DNA from: Octopus vulgaris
Lineage: Eukaryota
Length of the DNA: 64,000 nucleotides
Direction: 5' to 3'
Assembly (NCBI GenBank): GCA_951406725.2
Contig: OX597835.1
Location: 31,620,001-31,684,000 of the forward strand
Part shown: positions 6,056 to 63,668 of the stretch, piece by piece
How positions within the stretch are numbered: the stretch's first letter is position 1
How the letters are laid out: each line of letters begins with the position of its first letter
Position numbers and translations under genes: made by a program
Notes under the pieces: generated by a model
What the model was told of the DNA's origin: nothing
Seen by the model: the letters and a program-made list of their open reading frames with translations, nothing else
The model's database searches: none

Positions 6056-6825
6056 GTAAATATACTGAACTAAAGTTATAATATTTGTCCACTTACTTTG
6101 GAGCATCGTATGTCGAACGTGGCTGTATAAATTATATTTGGTATCACTTAGTTCCATAATTCAAAAGATATTCAACACTACGTATTCTCATCGGAATCGC
6201 CAAGTCCATTTACCAAGGAAAAAAAAAAAAAGATAAAGCAAAAACCCACAAACAACAAAAAACAACCAGAACAATATCGACGTATCTTCGCTCTGTGATG
6301 ATTTTCATATAATTTTCCAAATTTGTTTATTTAGTCTGAATTCGTTTTTTTTATTTTACCTCTATAACTTTTGTGCAAAGTGTAAATTCCTGACTAAACA
6401 GATCTAATTATGAAAAAACTATAGACGAAATACCCTAAACTTTTGTTATGGTAATTAGTACGTCGGTTCATTATATCATATAATAGCATTCTGTGCCGGA
6501 GTAATGTGTTCTTCTTTTGTGTTCGTTACGATCTCTCACAAAATTACGTTTGTATTTTCCTAAGGAAACAATAGTAGATAAATAACTTTAACCTTATCAA
6601 CGCATTGAATATCATAATATTTTATAAGGATATTTACGGAGGAGAAAAAGAGAAAAGTATAAATAAAAGTAAACACTGGACCACGCAGCAATTTTAACGG
6701 ATGTTCAAACTATATTGGGAGTAAATAAGAAATGAAACAATTGAACGTTATCAAGAAGCACAATGGGACAGTGAGAAGATATGTTTTTTTAAAATATGGA
6801 TCTGCTCCGTAAGCAGGGATCACAT

Positions 6826-8920
<2,095 letters not shown>

Positions 8921-12655: not shown

Positions 12656-12711
<56 letters not shown>

Positions 12712-12720
<9 letters not shown>

Positions 12721-13530
12721 TAATAAATAAAACATATGCATATATATATACATATATGTACGTACCTACCTCTACATCTATATATACACGCATATATGAG
12801 TACAGGACACCAAAAAAACGTCGAAGACAATGAGAAACGAAAACATAGACACAAACCCAAGGAACTGGACATTTTTCTTAAACAACAAAAAAATAGAGTA
12901 CAGGACAAATAACACAAGGAAAAAGAACCCCTTCTTCAGTCGCCATGGTTTCATCTACTCTACGTTTCGAAGGTGAAGGCGAGATGTATCTTCGATAAGA
13001 AACTTTCCTTCCTGCGAAAAGCAAGTCAAATAAAATTTGAGATCTTTTTGCAGAGGGGTAAACATGGTAACAAAAACAGGACAGTAACGACAGTACAGAA
13101 TATAAGCAGTAAAAGACAGGACAAGGAAAATAACAAGACAAGAGGGGCTGTTAACGCCGAACGAAAAAAAAGTATTACGAACGCTAATTTCTGCAAAAAG
13201 ATCTCAAATTTTATTTGATTTGCTTTTCGCAGGAGGGAAAGTTTCTTATTGAAGATACGTCTCGCCTTCACCTTCTAAACGTAGAGTAGATGAAACCATG
13301 GCGACTGAAGAAGGGATTTTTTCCTTGTGTTATTTGTCCTGTACTCTATTTTTTTGTTGCTTAAGAAAAATGTCCAGTTCCTTGGGTTTGTGTCTATATT
13401 TTGGTTTCTCATTGTGTTCGATGTTTTTTTGGTGTCCTGTACTCATATATGCGTGTATATATAGATTTAGAGGTAGGTACGTACATATATGTATATATAT
13501 ATGCATATGTTTTATTTATTAATATATTAT
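12712..13530. repeat. Inverted repeat with ~340-bp arms (12712-13054 / 13190-13530) and a 135-bp spacer; probable pLTR-only PLE insertion
   Basis: Arms are reverse complements, roughly 95% identical by eye; between (TA)n tracts. Confidence 0.85.
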
Positions 13531-13573
13531 ATGACGGAACGCACGCATCCCATTCTAAGTAAGATTGTTCTTG

Positions 13574-36743: not shown

Positions 36744-39305
36744 TCCCGAAGTTCAGCGAACTATTTACACTGGCCATGCGTGACTCCCCTGATGTGATAG
36801 CTATCACCGAGACTTGGCTGACTCCAGCAGTAAAGGACTCAGAAATCCACCTACAGGGCTACGTCCTCTTCAGATGTGACAGAGAAAAAAGGCGAGGTGG
36901 AGGTGTTGCTGTTTATGTTAAATCTGATCACAAACCGCCCAGCGGTATTCTACCCACTAATGCTCAACCTACAACAAAATTCGATGCCGTCTATTGCAAG
37001 CTGAGTCTATCCGAGTTTTGCCTGCCCGTGTTAGCTGTTTACAGGCCGCCTCTTGCCGACCCCCAGGACGATGCTCATTTACTCGAAGCGATAAGATTCG
37101 TTTCAGCTTCTCATGACTGTTTGATTAATATCAAACAGCTTCAACGCTCCCACGATCGATTGGCCCGCATCAATTTGTACAACATCTTCCCGGTTCGGCC
37201 AGGCCCTTCTTGACGTGGCTGAAGATTCTTTTCTATCGCAACATGTTGAATATCCGACAAGGCATCGGTCTGGGTAGCAGCCATCTATGCTGGATCTGGT
37301 ATTCTCCCGCTATCCAAGATCAGTGTCAGACGTATCTGTGTGCACCCCTCTTGCCAAGAGTGATCATGCGGTCCTGAAGTTCGTCATGCACACAACTTTT
37401 TCTACGCTGACGACTACTTCGCTGCCACGTAGAGTCTTCTCTGCAATTAATCTTGAAATTCTAACCGAGGCTTCCGCGCTTCTGGACTGGCGATCCCTGA
37501 TGACGTTGTCCTCAGTTGACGAACTATGGTCATCCCTCAAAGCATATGTAATCTGGTTGACTGACCAGGCAGTTCCCGTTGGGCTTCCCAAGAAGAAGAA
37601 ACACAAGCCCTGGGTGACGAAGAAGGTTAAACGAGAACTTTTTCAACTATTTTCAAACAAGATGATGGTCGTGAACCCCCTCCATTTGATAGATCGGTAC
37701 CTCCAATGCTACGATTGGTCATCACGCGGGACGAAGTCAAACGTGTTATTCAAGGCCTCGATATCAACAAGGGTCACGGCCCTGACGGCATACACCCACG
37801 GGTTATCAAAGCGTTGGCTCCGGTCATCTGCGAGCCCTTAACACGTCTATTCAATATGTCATTGGCGACGGGTGTTATACCTGCGGACTAGAGAACAGCG
37901 ATAATCTGCCCAATTTTCAAGAAAGGGAGTCGCGAAGACCCGCTTAACTACCGACCGGTTTCCCTTACATCAATAATCAGCAAGATGTTCGAAACCATCC
38001 TTAAGAAAAGTATGATGCTCCACCTCCAAAACACAGCCTCTATCTCTGATTCCCAACACGGCTTCGTGCCGAAGAGATCATGCTTGACCAACTTACTGGT
38101 AATGGAAGAATTGGTGACGCGCATCCTCGATGATAGTAACGCTGTTGACATCGTTTTATTGGACTTTGCCAAAGCTTTTGACTCGGTAAACCACCGCCTA
38201 TTACTTGTCAAGCTTCAAGCATATAGTTTCCCTCCGGATATTGTACGATGGGTTGGTGCCTTCCTCTCAGATCGCTCCTTCCGAGTCCAAGTTAATGGTT
38301 CGCGGTCCGACGTCTCCAGTGTGAGCAGTGGCGTGCCTCAAGGTTCAGTGCTTGGGCCCTTATTGTTCTTAGTCTTCATAAATGACTTGCCAGACGACCT
38401 CACGCAACACACCCTTCTATTTGCCGACGATATCAAACTGGTCGCTCCTCGCGGTGATAGAGAGGATCTTCGTCGATGCCTCCACCAAATTTGGAGGTGG
38501 TCTAGCGAATGGGACCTGTGTCTGAACGTGTCAAAGTGCTGTCATCTGCCTGTTGGCTCTCCTCCTGCAACTCAACTTGATTTCGAGCCGGGTCGTCTGC
38601 TGCTGGAGAGGACCGATCAAGTAAAGGACCTGGGTATCTTGGTGGATTCCTCCTTTTCGCCTTCGGCCCAGTGCGTCCATGCTGCCAACAAAGCACGCGG
38701 AATTCTGTTCTTGATTCGACGGTCATTCGGAATGCTCACAGCAGCCATATTCCTACCACTCTATGTCACGCTGGTGAGACCCATATTGGAGTACGAGATT
38801 CAAGCCTCTTCTCCTTATCTCCTCAAAGACATACAGCATCTCGAAAGAGTCCAGAAGCTGGCTACCCGCATGGTTCATGGTCTCAAAAATTTGTCTTATG
38901 AAGAAAGGCTGAGGACGCTCGACCTTTATTCTCTAGAAAAACGCCCCCGCCGTGGTGATCTCATTCTCGCTCACAACATCATAAGCGGAAAGTGTAACCT
39001 CTCGAAAGAGCTGTTCTTCACTCCTGCTCCAGAACGTCGGCTGCGGGATCATTCCGAAAAGCTCTACCTGCGACGATTTCATCTCAATCGAAGGAGAGGA
39101 GCTTTCTCCGTCCGGGTTGCGGATCCGTAGAACAAGCTGCCAGACGAGATGGTGAAGATGCCGACGACCGCTTTGTTCAAAGTTTCCCTTGACCTCAAGT
39201 GGCCTGAACGCTTTACATGAACACCACCTTGTACTTAACTCCATGTCCCCCTACATGGCCTTGCTATTTGCTTTTGAGCCAAAAATTAACTAACTAACTA
39301 ACTAA
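36744..39305 (+). mobile_element. CR1/L2-group LINE ORF2 relic (APE endonuclease + RT) with (CTAA)n tail
   Basis: EN motifs DVIAITETWL, RRGGGV, VYRPP, LDLVF, SDH; RT motifs GPDGI, QHGF, LDFAKAFDSV, GVPQGSVLGP, LFADDIKL; frame 37706-39220 broken by two TAG stops; frameshifts and internal deletion upstream. Confidence 0.93.
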
Positions 39306-42171: not shown

Positions 42172-42216
<45 letters not shown>

Positions 42217-42402
42217 ATGTTACATTACTTGGTAGTCAAGATAAAACTCTGAGTTTCAGATGCCGAAGTGGAAATCCACAACACCATCTCATCGGTTATC
42301 TGGCTATTTGAAAACGTTATGAAAAAATACCGTTAAAAATGAAGGGAAATTACTCTGTTATAACTCAAATTTCGTAAGTCTTTTAACGATTTCCAACATA
42401 AA

Positions 42403-44244
42403 TTGAAAAAAGATATTAATCATATAAAAAGCTCCAAGAAAAAAGCACTTTTTTCGGATAAAACCAAGAACTTATACCTGGTAGATAACAGCAAATACAC
42501 ACAACTTTTACACAACAGCATCATTAATAATTATACTAAGGCTAGGGCACAGACATATAACGAAATTAATAAAGAAGCTAGCGTCATCGCCGCTAAACTT
42601 AAATTAGATAAAAAAATAGAAGCCCTCCCCCAAAAAGAGGCCTTTATTACTATTAAAGATCACAAAGAAAACTTCCTTTCCAACCCTAAATGTAGGCTTA
42701 TCAACCCAGCCAAGTCAGAACTAGGGATTATTAGCAAAGAGATTTTAGATAAAATAAATACGAAAATTAGGACCGATACTAGGCTAGTGCAATGGTCCAA
42801 TAGTATAGAAGTCGTAGACTGGTTTAAAGCTATTAAAAATAAGAAAAAAGCGAGGTTTACACAATTCGATATTGTTGATTTTTATGCCTCTATCTCTAAA
42901 GAACTGCTAGATAAAGCCCTAATCTTCGCTAGTGACTTCATAGAAATTAGTACCAATGATAAGGATATAATCTTCCATGCTAGAAAGACATTACTTTTCA
43001 GTGAGAATGCAAAGTGGGTAAAAAACACCGACACGGAGGGCGCTTTCGATGTGAGCATGGGTTCATATGATGGGGCAGGCATCTGTGATCTAATTGGACT
43101 CTTTCTCCTAGATACCTTCGGTAAGACATTCCCTAACGTACATTTCGCCATCTACAAAGATGATGCCCTCGTTTTAACAGCTAATACAAATGGACCAGCA
43201 CAAGATCGTTTTAGGAAGGATATTATCCAGTTAATGAAACACTTCGGACTTAGTATAACTATAGACACTAACCTGACGGTTGTCAATTTCTTAGACGTTT
43301 CCTTAGATCTTAATAAAAATATTTATAAGCCTTATAGGAAGCCCAATGATAGACTAAGTTATATTAATGTAGGTTCATGCCATCCCCCTATAGTATTCAA
43401 AAATTTAGTTTAGAATATTAGTAAGAGGATTTCTAGCCTCTCATCTAATGAGGACATCTTCAATAGCGTTGCCCCAGTTTATAATAAAGCTTTAAAAGAT
43501 AGTGGTTTTAGCGAAAAAATAAAATATACACCTATCACTAGCCCAACAATAAGGAAAAGGAATAATAGAAATAGGAAGGTCATCTGGTTTACGTCCCCTT
43601 ACTCACCCGAGGTGGCCTTCAATATAGGTAAATATTTCCTAGCACTGATAGATAGACATTTTCCAGTTAACCATGCTTATAGGAAACTCTTCAATAGACA
43701 CAATTTAAAAATTAGTTTTAGTTCAACTACCAATTTTAAAAACATAATCAATCATAACATACAAAAAACACAAGAAGAAAACAGCTGTTCATGCAGGAAT
43801 AAAGAATTGTGCCCGCTAAATGGAGCTTGCATGTCCAAGACCATCATATATGAAGCTACCGTAAACTCTATAACCACTAAAGACACCGTTTCGACGAAGA
43901 AATACGTGGGCCTTACAGAGGGTAATTTCAAGGCCAGGTTCAATAACCACACTTTGAGCTTTAGGCACTGGAACAAAAGAAAAGCGACACAATTATCCAA
44001 TCATATTTGGTCTTTAAGAGATAAAGGTGTTGATTATAACATACAATGGAAGATTTTGGCCAGATGTAAGCCCTATACTAACGGCAGCGGAAGGTGCGGT
44101 TTATGCGACATGGAGAGATGGCTTATCTGGAAAAGCAGCTTAGACCCTACTACATGCCTAAATACAAGGACAGAGCTTTTCGGATCATGCCCACATGTGA
44201 CTAAATTTCTGTTACGTTTTTGGTCCCCTAAAGAAAACGGATAG
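42403..44244 (+). pseudogene. PLE reverse transcriptase + Cys-rich linker + GIY-YIG endonuclease; single in-frame TAG at 43411-43413
   Basis: Motifs TIKDHKENF, CRLINPAKSELG, FDIVDFYASI, MGSYDG, IYKDDAL, NFLDVSL; CSC..CPL.G.C linker; IIY..KYVGLTEGNFKARFNNH; CGLC; CPH. ORFs 42403 and 43612 share one frame. Confidence 0.93.
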
Positions 44245-44430
44245 AACATGCTTTCTGTGTTATGTTCCAAGAAGAATTTATATATTTTTATATATATTTT
44301 TATGTATTTTTATATAACTTTTATGATGAAAAATGCGAGCGATGTATAAGTACGCAGGCAAAGCAGAGTTATAACAGAGTAATTTCCCTTCATTTTTAAC
44401 GGTATTTTTTCATAACGTTTTCAAATAGCC

Positions 44431-44493
44431 AGATAACCGATGAGATGGTGTTGTGGATTTCCACTTCGGCATCTGAAACTCAGAGTTTTATCT
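44431..44493 (+). ncRNA. Hammerhead-like motif in the PLE pLTR (second copy 42239-42301, minus strand)
   Basis: agataa-CCGATG-AGATG...CATCT-GAAA-CTC a GAG-TT-ttatct; core is one nucleotide short of consensus. Confidence 0.5.
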
Positions 44494-44591
44494 TTACTAC
44501 CGAGTAATGTAACATATTGTATAGATAAATTTCCTCTATTTACATAATATTGAGGTCTCTTTCTTTCTTTTGTTATCTTACCGTTTTATCA

Positions 44592-45745: not shown

Positions 45746-46751
45746 GTTTCTTTATTAGCCACACAGGGCTGCACACAGATAGAACAAATTACAAGGTAGA
45801 GCTTTTCTTTTGAAGGTTTAAGAAAGAAAAAAAAAAAAGGAAGGGGGAGTTTCGATCAAAAGGGATCGTAAAAGGAGAGAAAGAGGACAAAAAAAGGGGG
45901 GTTTAAAAAAAGGGGGGAGGAAAAAATTGATCAATAGGGATCGTTATCACAGAAATGTCAATATGAAGTGTAAAGGGGAGGACAGGTGAGGTTTACCCGT
46001 GCAAAGAAAAGCCTACGGAAAAGACCACGGTAACCTCGGTCAATGATGTCACATTTTATATTTCTTTTTTTTTTTTGCAAATAAGCAACTCTCTGTTTTC
46101 GATTTCTGGGTTCATAGGACTATGCTCAAGGTGGCTTCGTCATTCATACGTGCCATTCTTGCTACATTCACCCATCTTTTTAAAACATTCGCTAGACAAA
46201 ACTTGCCTCTCTACTCTCACTTTCCTTTTCAAGTGGTACTTGAAGAAGTTGATGAGAGATTGACCAGAGAGGAAAGTGTTTGTCTCCAATCCTTTCAGAC
46301 GCGTCCACCAGATACATTCTTTCGCCATAGCCACAAGGATGATAAACCGACTCGTCCCACACGTGACAGCAGTTGTTCGACATAAGCCCACAGGTCGGAA
46401 ATTGTTGGACACTGAACGAGTGCGTGCAGAACGGTTTCGTCGCTCTGACCGCATCTCGGGCAGGTCGGCCCCGTGTTTCTCGAGCCGTGTCTGTAGAGCT
46501 TATCCCGAACGGGTAGCGCTTCTCGGTAGCACTGCCAGGCCAGGGATCTCTGGAAGTTGTCCATGGGCCCTGGCCCGAAAGTCGTCCTGAACAGGCGGGT
46601 CAGGTACTCCTCGTCGACGTCCAGGTTCGCCCCGAGCTCGTCGTCGTACCTCCCCTCCACTAAACCCCTATAGAATGCTTTGGTTGTGTTGAAGTCACTT
46701 AAGGTCGACCCAGGACGGCAGAGTTGCTTGAGAGCAACGCGACACTCGCGG
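45746..46751 (-). mobile_element. Tx1-like (L1 clade) LINE 3' fragment in a (GATA)n tract
   Basis: zf-RVT motif ALPVRDKL..CPRCGQSDETVLHALVQCP..LW; T-rich 3' UTR ending aataaagaaac. Confidence 0.8.
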
Positions 46752-46796
<45 letters not shown>

Positions 46797-46835
46797 TAGA
46801 TAGATAGATAGATGGATAGATTGATAGATAGATAA

Positions 46836-47345
46836 GTTTCTTTATTGGCCACACAGAGCTGCACACAGATGGGACAAATTACAAGGTAGAGCTTTTCTTT
46901 TGGGGGATGGAAAAAACAAAAAACAAAAGAAACAAAAAAAGGTGGCGTAGGTTTTCGATCAAAAGGGATCAAAAGGAAAAAAAAGAACAAAAAATTAAAA
47001 AATTAAAAAAAGAAGAAAAGGAAAAGGAACAAAAGAAAAGAGAAATGAACAAAAGAAGAAAAAAGGGGGGAAAAGGGGAAGAGGAAAAAACCCTCAATAG
47101 GGATCGTGTATCACAGTGTTATGATGTATGGTGTAAAGGGGAAATCAAGTAAGGTTTATCTGTGAGAAGAAAAGCCTACGAAAAAGACCACGGTAACCTT
47201 GGTCAATATTGTTATATGTTACCACATTTGTTTGCAAGTGGGTAACCCTCTGTTTTCAATTTCTGGGTTCATAGGATTATGCTCAAGGTGGCTTCGTCAT
47301 TCATGCGTGCCATCCTTGCTACAGTCACCCATCTTTTTTTAAAAC

Positions 47346-49656: not shown

Positions 49657-49701
<45 letters not shown>

Positions 49702-49844
49702 TAGTTATCGCCATACTAATATGGCATTCTTATAAAAATAAGCTCCATGAGGCCACCGCCTTAAGTTAGCTATTTGATACACAAACTGTACCCATATAAC
49801 CTTCGAACAAGGGAGGTCAGTCGCTCCACACTACTTGACCGGCA

Positions 49845-49886
49845 GCTACAGACGCGTTTCGGGGTATTGCCCCTTTTCAATGCAGC
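49845..49886 (-). ncRNA. Identical hammerhead copy on the minus strand
   Basis: Exact reverse complement of 50215-50256. Confidence 0.8.
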
Positions 49887-50214
49887 GTAGCCAGCCAGTA
49901 GGTGTCGCTTCCGACAATCTCTGTTCGATGGTTTTATTTACCTAGTTTCGGTGGAATACATCCACTTGTTTTCAATAATAGAAATATTAAAATAACTAAG
50001 TCTCTCTAAAGAGAACAGCGGCGTTCCCGAAAATAATAGTTATCGCCATACTAATATGGCATTCTTATAAAAATAAGAAAAAAGCTGTCCGCTTATTAGC
50101 TCCATGAAAACAAGTGGATGCATTATTGAAAACAAGTGGATGTATTCCACCGAAACTAGGTAAATAAAACCATCGAACAGAGATTGTCGGAAGCGACACC
50201 TACTGGCTGGCTAC

Positions 50215-50256
50215 GCTGCATTGAAAAGGGGCAATACCCCGAAACGCGTCTGTAGC
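50215..50256 (+). ncRNA. Minimal type I hammerhead ribozyme, U3-A8 core variant
   Basis: gctgca-TTGAAAA-GGGG caata CCCC-GAAA-CGCG-TC-tgtagc: stems I and II pair, stem III is palindromic, GUC cleavage triplet. Confidence 0.8.
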
Positions 50257-50482
50257 TGCCGGTCAAGTAGTGTGGAGCGACTGACCTCCCTTGTTCGAAG
50301 GTTATATGGATACAGTTTGTGTATCAAATAGCTAACTTAAGGCGGTGGCCTCATGGAGCTAATAAGCGGACAGCTTTTTTCTTATTTTTATAAGAATGCC
50401 ATATTAGTATGGCGATAACTATTATTTTCCGGGAACGCTGCCGCTGTTCTCTTTTAGAGAGACTTAGTTATTTTAATATTTC

Positions 50483-50521
<39 letters not shown>

Positions 50522-60849: not shown

Positions 60850-60895
<46 letters not shown>

Positions 60896-60953
60896 TTGTA
60901 AAAAAGAAGTTTGAAAACGCCACTATATTAGATAAATTTTAATTTTTTTATGA

Positions 60954-60998
60954 ATTTTACATGTTTCGGTTCTTGAAAAAACGAACCTTATCAAAAAT
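60954..60998 (-). ncRNA. Minimal hammerhead, U3-A8 variant (copy 1)
   Basis: Minus strand attt-TTGATAA-GGTTC(10 nt)GAACC-GAAA-CATG-TA-aaat. Confidence 0.7.
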
Positions 60999-61844
60999 AT
61001 TATAAAAGGTGCAACGGAAAAGTTCATAATCGTTTCTTACTTGTCTCAATAGAATCCATGTGGTGGTGTTTTGTCGGTAGTTAGTATAATCGCTATATTA
61101 CTGTTGAGTGTAGTGAAGAAGTCCATTATTGTTTCTTGCTGGTATCCAAAGGAACCGCTTTTTTGTTACCTTGTGTTCCAATGGTAGCAACAGTAGTGAT
61201 TGTTAGTTGTAGTAGTAGTAACCTGTGGCTGTTACTGTTGGTCGTAATTTTGGCAACCTTGGTGGTGGTTGGGGTTGTAGCAGTTAAGTTAAGCTGTGGC
61301 AGCAGCAGTAGCAGTAGTGGTCGGTTCACTGGCACTGCTCACCAGACGTATATATTTTGACCAAACTTCAACGAATACAAGGAAAAGACCTATATGTATC
61401 CTGTAAGGAAACCAACCAAGCAGAACGACAAGCTTGACCGTGAGTTGAAGAAAAACGTCATCAATTTTTTAACGAACCAAATCAGATCTGACCCATAACT
61501 GTATCCTGTAAGGAAACCAACCAAGTAGAACGACAAGCTTGACCACGGAAGAAAAAATTCATCAATTTTTTAACGAATCAAAATCAGATTGCTCGCAGAA
61601 AAAAATTTATAAATTCATCTTTCCCTAAAACATACCATATGCAAGCGGGAGTATGTTTAAAGATGTGTATGTAATATACATATGAATATATATATATATA
61701 CGTATACGTATATATATCTATAAACACATGCACCGACGATAATATTCTTGTCTCAGATTAATAAATTTTTAATCTAGAAGAGTGTAACGTAACACATGAG
61801 ATTAATGAAAAATCGCTTTAATTATAAATGAAAATGAAGCAAAT

Positions 61845-61892
<48 letters not shown>

Positions 61893-61950
61893 TTGTAAAA
61901 AAGAAGTTTGAAAACGCCACTATATTAGATAAATTTTAATTTTTTTATGA

Positions 61951-61995
61951 ATTTTACATGTTTCGGTTCTTGAAAAAACGAACCTTATCAAAAAT
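61951..61995 (-). ncRNA. Minimal hammerhead, U3-A8 variant (copy 2)
   Basis: Same motif as 60954-60998, in the second tandem unit. Confidence 0.7.
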
Positions 61996-62869
61996 ATTAT
62001 AAAAAGTGCAACGGAAAAGTTCATAATCGTTTCTTACTTGTCTCAATAGAATCCATGTGGTGGTGTTTTGTCGGTAGTTAGTATAATCGCTATATTACTG
62101 TTGAGTGTAGTGAAGAAGTCCATTATTGTTTCTTGCTGGTATCCAAAGGAACCGCTTTTTTGTTACCTTGTGTTCCAATGGTAGCAACAGTAGTGATTGT
62201 TAGTTGTAGTAGTAGTAACCTGTGGCTGTTACTGTTGGTCGTAATTTTGGCAACCTTGGTGGTGGTTGGGGTTGTAGCAGTTAAGCTGTGGCAGCAGCAG
62301 TAGCAGTAGTGGTCGGTTCTCTGGCACTGCTCACTGACGTCACATAATTCCAAACCAATCAAAACCAAACTTCAACGAATACAAGGAAAAGACCCATAAC
62401 TGTATCCTGTAAGGAAACCAACCAAGCAGAACGACAAGCTTGACCACGGAAGAAAAACGTCATCAATTTTTTAACGAACCAAATCAGATCTGACCCATAA
62501 CTGTATCCTGTAAGGAAACCAACCAAGCAGAACGACAAGCTTGACCACGGAAGAAAAACGTCATCAATTTTTTAACGAATCAAAATCAGATCTGCTCGCA
62601 GAAAAAAAAAATTTATAAATTCATCTTTCCCTAAAACATACCACTGCAAGCGGGAGTGACTGTTTAAAGATCTGAGAAATTGTAATTCCCCCACCTCCAC
62701 CCTTTTTTTACTATTTTAATTCTCACACTGTGGCCGTAGCAGCAATAGTAGTGACTACGGTGGTTGTAGTAGTAGTGCTGCTAGTGGAAGCAGTCGTAGT
62801 GGTCGTGGTGGTTGTAGTAGAATTTCATTTTTCCTTTTCGGAAGACCAATGTTTTGTTTTAATATTCCT

Positions 62870-63668
62870 GAACACCCTGAATAATAATATGATAAAGAAA
62901 TATAATAATAACAATAATAATGACAGTTTTAATAATAATAAGAAGGAAAATAAGAATAAAATTTGGTTAATAGTTCCTTATGGTGCTCAAGTTAAAACGA
63001 ACATTATTAAAGAGACTTTAGATATTATTGAACTATTTATTCGAGATAATCATAAATATAAAAACATTTTCTCTAGTAATAATTTTGGAGTAAGTTATTC
63101 CACCACTAATAGTGTAGGTAACATTATTTCTTCTTTTAACAAATTTAAACTGAATAATTTTTATAAAAATAAATTATATAATAATACCAATAATAAAGAT
63201 AAGACACTAATTAACTGTACATGTAGAGATAAAACTAAATGTAAATTAAATAATAAATGTGATATTAACGATGTAATGCATAAATGTATAGTTACATTAC
63301 ATGATGAGAATAATATTAATAATAATAACTCAAACGCGATATATATAGGGTCCACTTCCTCTAAAATAAAATTAAGAATCGCACAACATATGAATTCATT
63401 TAAAAATAAAAACTTAATTAACTCCACTGGACTTAGCAAGTACATTTGGGGACTTAAATCCCAAAATATTAATTATAATATATCTTGGGAAATAATTAGT
63501 AAAACTAAATCATATAGTATAGGAGCGAATTTTTGTTATTTATATTCTAATGAGTTTAAGGAAATTTTATTTTATAAGCATAATAATTTACTGAATATCT
63601 GTGATGAGCGCAAAATAAAATGCAGACACAAGTTACTTTACTTATATAATAATTTTTTTGATAAATAA
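62870..63668 (+). pseudogene. 5'-truncated PLE C-terminus: RT thumb end, Cys linker and GIY-YIG endonuclease
   Basis: IWLIVPY, CTCRDKTKCKLNNKC, IYIGSTSSKIKLRIAQHMNSF, LSKYIWGLK, ISWEII, KCRH; collinear with the 43612-44244 protein. Confidence 0.85.

Follow-up and report, generated by a model that had tools for sequence, protein, structure and literature searches.

How does a short non-coding hammerhead unit come to lie, as two inverted arms, between tracts of TA microsatellite? The question is raised by one insertion in the window (the whole 64-kb stretch of DNA analyzed here, which is microsatellite-rich and comes from an assembly of 2.8 Gb in 227 contigs). It touches two points that are open in the literature: how retrozymes enter the genome, and how the tandem, inverted and one-tailed structure of Penelope-type insertions arises, the latter named as unexplained in the part consulted of 10.1101/2021.04.23.441226. 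The element class, the U3-A8 core of its hammerhead and the one-sided tail have all been described before; the insertion record is unusually clear. With its fixed ends and its haplotype markers, this small, young and abundant family lets insertion models be checked by counts in the genome. We consider it likely that the locus is a young insertion of a non-LTR retrozyme, at which the enzyme of a Penelope-like element (PLE) primed both cut strands of the target on one RNA at two fixed sites.

The insertion and its family

Two inverted arms pair over 242 nt with 99% complementarity (49738-49979 with 50122-50363), their outer ends abut (TA)n, and ATTATTGAAAAC lies at 50122-50133 on the plus strand and at 49968-49979 on the minus strand; the inverted arms and the repeated letters are as the first-pass annotation had read them. 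Between two (TA)n tracts lie a minus arm of 412 nt and, to its right, a plus arm of 361 nt, with a slip duplication of 22 nt where they meet (Table 1). Arm A is 5'-truncated at unit position 224, passes from 362 to 1 and has its 3' end at site A (unit ~300). Arm A has lost 22 nt near 49745, 3 nt at another place and single bases at two more, and it has a substitution of its own, so that the arms are near-identical, as had been claimed, yet they are not mirror images.

Several details of the earlier description change. The unit, put at about 360 nt, has an exact period of 362 nt, and its plus copy starts at 50128 rather than 50131. What was taken for a head-to-tail junction near 49972 is the ordinary interior of a circularly permuted array, in that unit 361 is site B, after which all arrays simply continue with unit 1; if the RNA is ligated, the joint is expected at the cut site between 50250 and 50251, not at unit 361/1. 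The recurrence of the same letters near 50125 is real, but is explained as the slip duplication of the inner junction.

Table 1. Positions of the features of the insertion within the window
Feature	Position	Strand	Basis or detail
Left (TA)n target tract	49660..49695	.	sequence
Arm A	49696..50107	-	412 nt; unit 224>362>1>300
Hammerhead of arm A	49845..49886	-	core 49880-49874; predicted cut after C 49851
Inner junction with 22-nt slip duplication	50106..50127	+	unit 1-15, one base, unit 357-362
Hammerhead-like stretch, conserved	50126..50163	+	same 5' core, 5-bp hairpin, GAAAC, no helix I
Arm B	50128..50488	+	unit 1-361; 3' end is site B
Type I hammerhead	50215..50256	+	motif scan; predicted cut after C 50250
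Hairpin common to two sister families	50398..50413	+	12 nt before site A
Site A	50418..50430	+	unit 291-303; outer end in 66/145 arms
Site B	50479..50488	+	unit 352-362; outer end in 73/145 arms
Right (TA)n target tract	50489..50520	.	sequence

A 35-nt core of the unit has 784 exact matches in the genome, compared with 0 for a reversed control, and a search with the whole unit gave 1775 candidate places, of which 40 were scored. We analyzed 87 loci, made up of 27 best matches (3 of 30 were dropped as duplicates) and 60 picked by position; for the latter, the first 100 matches in the list were grouped into 63 clusters, and the first 60 of these were used. These loci comprise 62 simple tail-out palindromes, 21 single arms and 4 complex arrangements. 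Tandem arrays without an ORF, up to 7 or more units long and with variable permutation points, are seen across the sampled copies, as had been anticipated. The reading of the unit as ORF-less is borne out by a longest stop-free stretch of 55 codons, and a longest stretch from ATG of 38, in the six frames of a natural dimer; its youth agrees with 1.5% substitutions relative to one natural copy at the 60 position-picked loci. Older subfamilies, at 74-86% identity, were reached via variants seen in public contigs, and they keep the closed 362-nt layout.

The first-pass annotation had set against its own reading the case in which the unit is always the pLTR of an autonomous PLE with fixed ends. 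No PLE frame is contiguous with the unit at any of the 60 position-picked loci within flanks of ~2.5 kb, where PLE pieces occur at 6 loci and at least 340 nt away, nor at any of 55 older-subfamily loci, 3 of which hold separate PLE pieces. The unit is thus a tandem repeat within 150-450 bp with a type I hammerhead in each copy and a highly self-paired monomer by predicted fold, and it has no protein coding or LTR structure as judged from the stop-free lengths and the absence of a contiguous PLE frame. On these testable features it is a young member of the described non-LTR retrozymes, resident in TA microsatellites and carrying a predicted ribozyme.

Between 77 and 90% of the unit's words are present in sequence runs of six organisms; the young family may span close relatives, or the samples may be differently labelled. 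Elsewhere in the window, nested inverted repeats surround a LINE-like 3' end at 6824-8920, and the translations at 37278-39130 and 46295-47002 belong to what we take to be CR1-like and other LINE reverse-transcriptase fragments.

The predicted hammerhead

A motif scan found one type I hammerhead in each arm, and one per unit, with the GUC ending at 50250 as annotated. Helix I is formed by 50215-50220 and 50251-50256 and can be extended to about 50200/50270. The core, at 50221-50227, reads UUGAAAA (U3-A8) in place of CUGAUGA, a swap that is a described natural variant in the part consulted of PMC4209133. It is followed by a 4-bp helix II (50228-50240), GAAA at 50241-50244, a palindromic helix III at 50244-50249 (AC-GC-GU) and C17 at 50250. 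The description of this hammerhead as well-paired holds for stems I and II; it does not extend to helix III, which closes poorly in the monomer. Rfam did not call a hammerhead, returning 0 hits at the gathering threshold and none of this kind among 34 hits at E<=10.

We aligned the window copy with 24 older-subfamily copies, which gave 24 distinct rows after one duplicate locus and one internally deleted copy were excluded. Stem positions pair in 95.1% of 569 cells; the figure is 89.6% for shuffled alignments and does not exceed 45% for slid controls. Changes on both sides are found in 6 of the 24 pairs. The U3-A8 pair is retained in 24 of 24 rows. The two bases of loop III are self-complementary in every one of the 22 rows that have letters there (AU in 12, UA in 7, GU in 2 and GC in 1). 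Since the aligned rows belong to few subfamilies, this covariation amounts to a handful of independent events. The joint variation of the stems and of the palindromic loop III suggests selection on the hammerhead at the level of RNA. A double hammerhead is the best predicted fold for two copies, at -59.1 kcal/mol compared with -53.0 kcal/mol for two monomers, and the monomer running from cut to cut is predicted to fold at -119.1 kcal/mol (z -5.5), a value that none of 100 shuffles reached. We infer from these sequence features that the RNA may cleave itself after the GUC through paired hammerheads.

Two published results, each taken from the part of the source available, count against the reading preferred here: 8 of 9 predicted retrozyme dimers of Xenopus failed to cleave in vitro (10.64898/2026.07.22.740005), and cleavage by the PLE hammerhead is dispensable for insertion in vitro (PMC11167929).

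Other candidate signs of a ribozyme did not hold up. The hammerhead-like stretch at 50126-50163 has no helix I, its GAAAC is altered in the oldest copies and the motif scan did not call it, and it is probably not a ribozyme. The 5' ends of arms were considered as a mark of cleavage, with 13 of 145 falling at unit 122-131 where 4.0 are expected, but other clusters are as strong or stronger, including 26 ends at unit 158-168, at a self-complementary hexamer. Microhomology in helix I explains the ends near the cut site, and we do not take them as a sign that the RNA was cleaved. At unit 1-5, an apparent surplus of 5' ends is an artifact of discarding matches under 25 nt.

In run X8, from another organism and presumed to be RNA, a contig of depth 7.2 has A>G changes clustered over the hammerhead (window 50170-50303), the pattern that A-to-I editing of double-stranded RNA would leave, though such editing is unproven. 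Inherited edits of this kind were not seen in the genomic copies, where 9 extra matches over 11 A sites compare with 3 over 5 T sites. The window also contains, on the minus strand at 60880-62660, a tandem element of ~1 kb with a U3-A8 hammerhead-like motif and palindromic helix III (near 60945-60995 and 61945-61995), and related copies are present at loci L128, L139 and L224.

Two fixed ends and a probable common template

The outer ends of the arms are placed with high regularity. Across the 87 loci, 139 of 145 arms end at site A or B compared with 6.6% expected, and in 122 of the 145 (TA)n follows directly after the outer end. The inner ends, unlike the outer ones, are spread around the unit. 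Sites A and B are 63 nt apart; both follow CUAUUAU-like sequence and both end in sequence resembling (TA)n. In 57 palindromes each end falls at one of the two sites; of these, 56 use both sites (AB), one has B at both ends (BB) and none has A at both (AA), and 5 further palindromes have one end outside A/B. Those from the position-picked set are AB in 38 of 38 cases. The autonomous Hydra element of the window follows the same rule at 15 of 16 loci with both ends visible, with its sites ~67 nt apart. At the inner junctions, overlaps of 1-16 nt are present in 44 of 62 by raw count, and three junctions join at the self-complementary hexamer (unit 162-167). Where retrozymes have a target-site duplication, it is larger than 4 bp; most ends here lie in TA runs, and of the 12 palindromes shown that lack TA runs on both sides, two (L015 and L195) are, by raw count, flanked by short repeats.

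These traits, namely tandem and inverted insertion, a tail at one end and a bias to TA microsatellites, are those of Penelope-type insertions, as had been proposed for this ORF-less, non-autonomous unit. The A/B rule corresponds to the tail on one end only that is known for PLEs (10.1101/2021.04.23.441226, PMC3846280), and A and B match the two internal start sites of the reverse transcriptase of a purified PLE, for which cutting and extension of both target strands are described and a dimer is predicted in the part consulted of PMC11167929.

The two arms of a locus also appear to share a template. Within loci they disagree at 1 of 264 diagnostic sites, compared with 33% (minimum 17%) in 2000 shuffles among 38 loci. 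Ten rare variants are present in every covering copy of both arms, and at the window locus the private base at 50345 in arm B is also found in arm A. A further 152 rare variants are restricted to one arm, which fits later mutation, as expected, but is not diagnostic. Gene conversion between the arms, or a single source locus that dominates a germ cell, could alternatively give such concordance. The A/B ends and the shared haplotypes would both fit a Penelope-type mechanism in which one RNA, uncut or circular, primes the two strands of the target.

What form this RNA takes is addressed by the cut site, which is crossed intact by 108 of 145 arms and at least twice by 42 of them, with 0 indels at 179 crossings; cut linear monomers are therefore unlikely as the usual template. 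A monomer circle at some generation is suggested by private variants that occupy every unit of an array: five are present in all units of L154, two in 7/7 units of the long arm of L174, and one in 4/4 copies across both arms of L196. Three variants that are specific to one unit and are common to both arms in register (L003, L165, L208) fit a multimer template better than a monomer circle; the other shared variants of this kind comprise three that are not in register, a doubtful one and two alignment artifacts. Both templates, circle and multimer, were probably used. The head-to-tail joint is present in 4/4 sequence runs, drawn from three organisms and seen as contigs only, and genomic tandems give the same joint. 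Retrozyme circles are described, and a circular route is proposed, in the part available of PMC7229834.

The same element and enzyme might instead use linear read-through multimers as the sole template, the hammerhead being kept for another step and circles not serving for insertion. The three in-register variants agree with this, as do the weak helix III of the monomer and the fact that unprocessed RNA was the main substrate of one PLE in vitro (PMC11167929, in part). The array-filling variants of L154, L174 and L196, however, need a bottleneck of a single unit followed by copying over more than one unit, and 5'-truncated copying of linear multimers only shortens arrays; we regard this account as rather unlikely. 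Self-priming, which the part consulted of PMC3846280 proposes for Penelope, would make the inverted arm a fold-back copy of an antisense template or of the cDNA made first; this is improbable. Fold-back would account for the shared haplotypes and for the overlaps at the center, including the three at the hexamer, and arm lengths are compatible with it in 43 of 56 AB loci. In the other 13 (12 of the 38 position-picked loci, and the window locus among the 13), however, the lengths are impossible for either arm as template of the other; the longer arm may be either one (23 versus 20), and fold-back gives no reason for the second arm to end at the other site in 56 of 57 palindromes. Least probable is that the unit is the solo pLTR of an unseen autonomous PLE, with arrays grown locally by unequal crossing over: the retrozymes of Xenopus do have pLTR relatives and are proposed to have amplified locally (10.64898/2026.07.22.740005, in part), and our PLE comparison took in two intact families against 13,092 to 33,902 candidate places, but a contiguous PLE frame is found at 0/60 position-picked and 0/55 older-subfamily loci, the older subfamilies share the closed layout, and the outer ends of arrays fall exactly at A or B and their inner ends in incomplete units.

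Priming of both strands on one RNA would proceed as follows. Arrays would be transcribed, and two hammerheads would pair through the palindromic helix III and cut after GUC, yielding monomers that a host ligase may close into circles, as the covariation and other retrozymes suggest. A (TA)n-targeting PLE protein, acting in trans, would then cut both strands of the target, and of the two strands one would prime at A and its partner 63 nt beyond, at B; here the ends are observed and the enzyme is presumed. Both cDNAs would pass the intact cut site on a circle or an uncut multimer, in a crossing seen for up to 7 turns. They would stop at the variable points observed and join head to head, mostly via the short overlaps seen at the junctions, leaving a palindrome with a tail on one end only.

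A further proposal is possible, though we lean against it: a PLE dimer would grip one circular RNA at both A and B, each protomer priming one strand of a double-strand cut and rolling round, and at least three long-lived retrozyme families of this genome would have evolved as RNAs, with no parent element homologous to them, recruiting the enzyme through a shared hairpin. If true, Penelope-type insertions owe their tandem copies, their inversion and their tail on one side to a single event.

Sister families, a candidate helper and known systems

Two sister families are distant relatives of the unit. One, with a 358-nt period and a U3-A8 core, has 2020 candidate places (L007:96-363, L212-L223), and the other, with a 352-nt period and a canonical C3-G8 core, has 3502 (L008:2420-2710, L255-L284). 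Identity to the unit is 66% over the hammerhead region (E 4e-5) for the 358-nt family, and 60% (E 0.005) for the 352-nt family. The AB rule holds in 9/9 palindromes among 12 loci of the former. In the latter, 15 palindromes from 28 loci, a set selected for B arms, comprise 12 AB, no AA or BB, and 3 others; its B ends were read from the listing as unit 293-298. A relative in L008 that looked longer was considered as an autonomous 3' end and proved to be this 352-nt retrozyme family. The hairpin before site A, common to all three families, is a candidate signal for the reverse transcriptase.

The enzyme had been attributed to local Neptune-type machinery, an assignment that does not stand. In the part consulted of 10.1101/2021.04.23.441226, the Neptune clade is marked by DKG and a CX2-5CxxC linker and the Hydra clade, which inserts into (TA)n, by DKT and CxCX5C. 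The family of the element at 42211-44560 has a period of 2590 nt, and many of its copies, 97-99% identical, keep an open frame of 717 aa. This frame contains SDKT and CSCRNKELC, the DKT and CxCX5C of the Hydra clade (as judged from motifs). A Pfam search gave a sub-threshold GIY-YIG match only, and none of the relatives retrieved with the 717-aa protein bore a name. The family looks recently active. The window copy itself has one stop in frame, an inverted 5' copy and a C4-core hammerhead CCGAUGA (CCGAAGA in most copies). Its pLTR and hammerhead show no significant likeness to the unit (best E 0.25), and none of the hammerhead, tail and hairpin of the unit recurs in the Hydra-type families compared, of which two are intact and a third is represented by a fragment. 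By target, architecture and youth the Hydra family is the best helper candidate, with no sequence in common with the unit. A direct assay could draw on a substrate of just 362 nt and on a candidate enzyme, apparently active, that the same genome encodes.

Other PLE-related sequences lie nearby. A 3' piece of a second Hydra-like family is present at 62676-63668, and a subfamily related to it has open frames of ~840 aa, an asparagine-rich insert and a canonical hammerhead. The palindrome at 12710-13532, between TA tracts and with 215-nt arms at 97%, has a hammerhead-like motif by eye and is probably a PLE end.

In the literature covered, which is partial, we found no description of the 362-nt family or of both-strand priming on one retrozyme RNA; the family is possibly catalogued in Repbase or Dfam. 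As far as the consulted parts of PMC7229834 and 10.64898/2026.07.22.740005 (the latter on 31 vertebrates, 3 insects and one coral) extend, the unit resembles animal non-LTR retrozymes in being a non-coding tandem repeat of 150-450 bp with a type I hammerhead in each copy, a GC content under 50% and no LTR. Its size is like that of the mussel family (350-390 bp), and retrozymes and the unit both co-occur with PLEs. It differs in its U3-A8 core and in its dispersed, short and mostly palindromic arrays with two fixed ends in (TA)n; insertion ends of the A/B kind are not described in those parts. In contrast to the 21 Xenopus cases, no homologous pLTR was found for the unit.

With PLE insertions, as described in the portions available of PMC3846280, Craig et al. 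(10.1101/2021.04.23.441226) and Frangieh et al. (PMC11167929), the unit shares partial tandems, an inverted 5'-truncated copy, a tail at one end, two internal start sites, an AT-rich target and microhomology at the inner junction. It differs in having no ORF and a tail of 63 nt rather than 30-40. For the unit, both the A/B rule and the sharing of a template by the arms are backed by counts. With the Poseidon enzyme in vitro, the start site did not differ between the strands and was not homologous to the target (PMC11167929), whereas both sites of the unit end in sequence resembling (TA)n. The non-autonomous MRC1-type elements of Chlamys, in the available part of 10.1101/2021.04.23.441226, generally resemble autonomous families at the 3' end and, unlike the unit, belong to a clade mostly without hammerheads.

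The hammerhead itself resembles those of metazoan PLEs, among them the U3-A8 variant of Schistosoma mansoni (PMC4209133, in part), in its U3-A8 core, a tendency to an unpaired base before helix II, palindromic 15.2-16.2 and loop 3, and a dimer-type architecture. Compared with the metazoan PLE hammerheads of that source, the 362-nt unit is set apart by its closed non-coding form, its long extended helix I and its 4-bp helix II.
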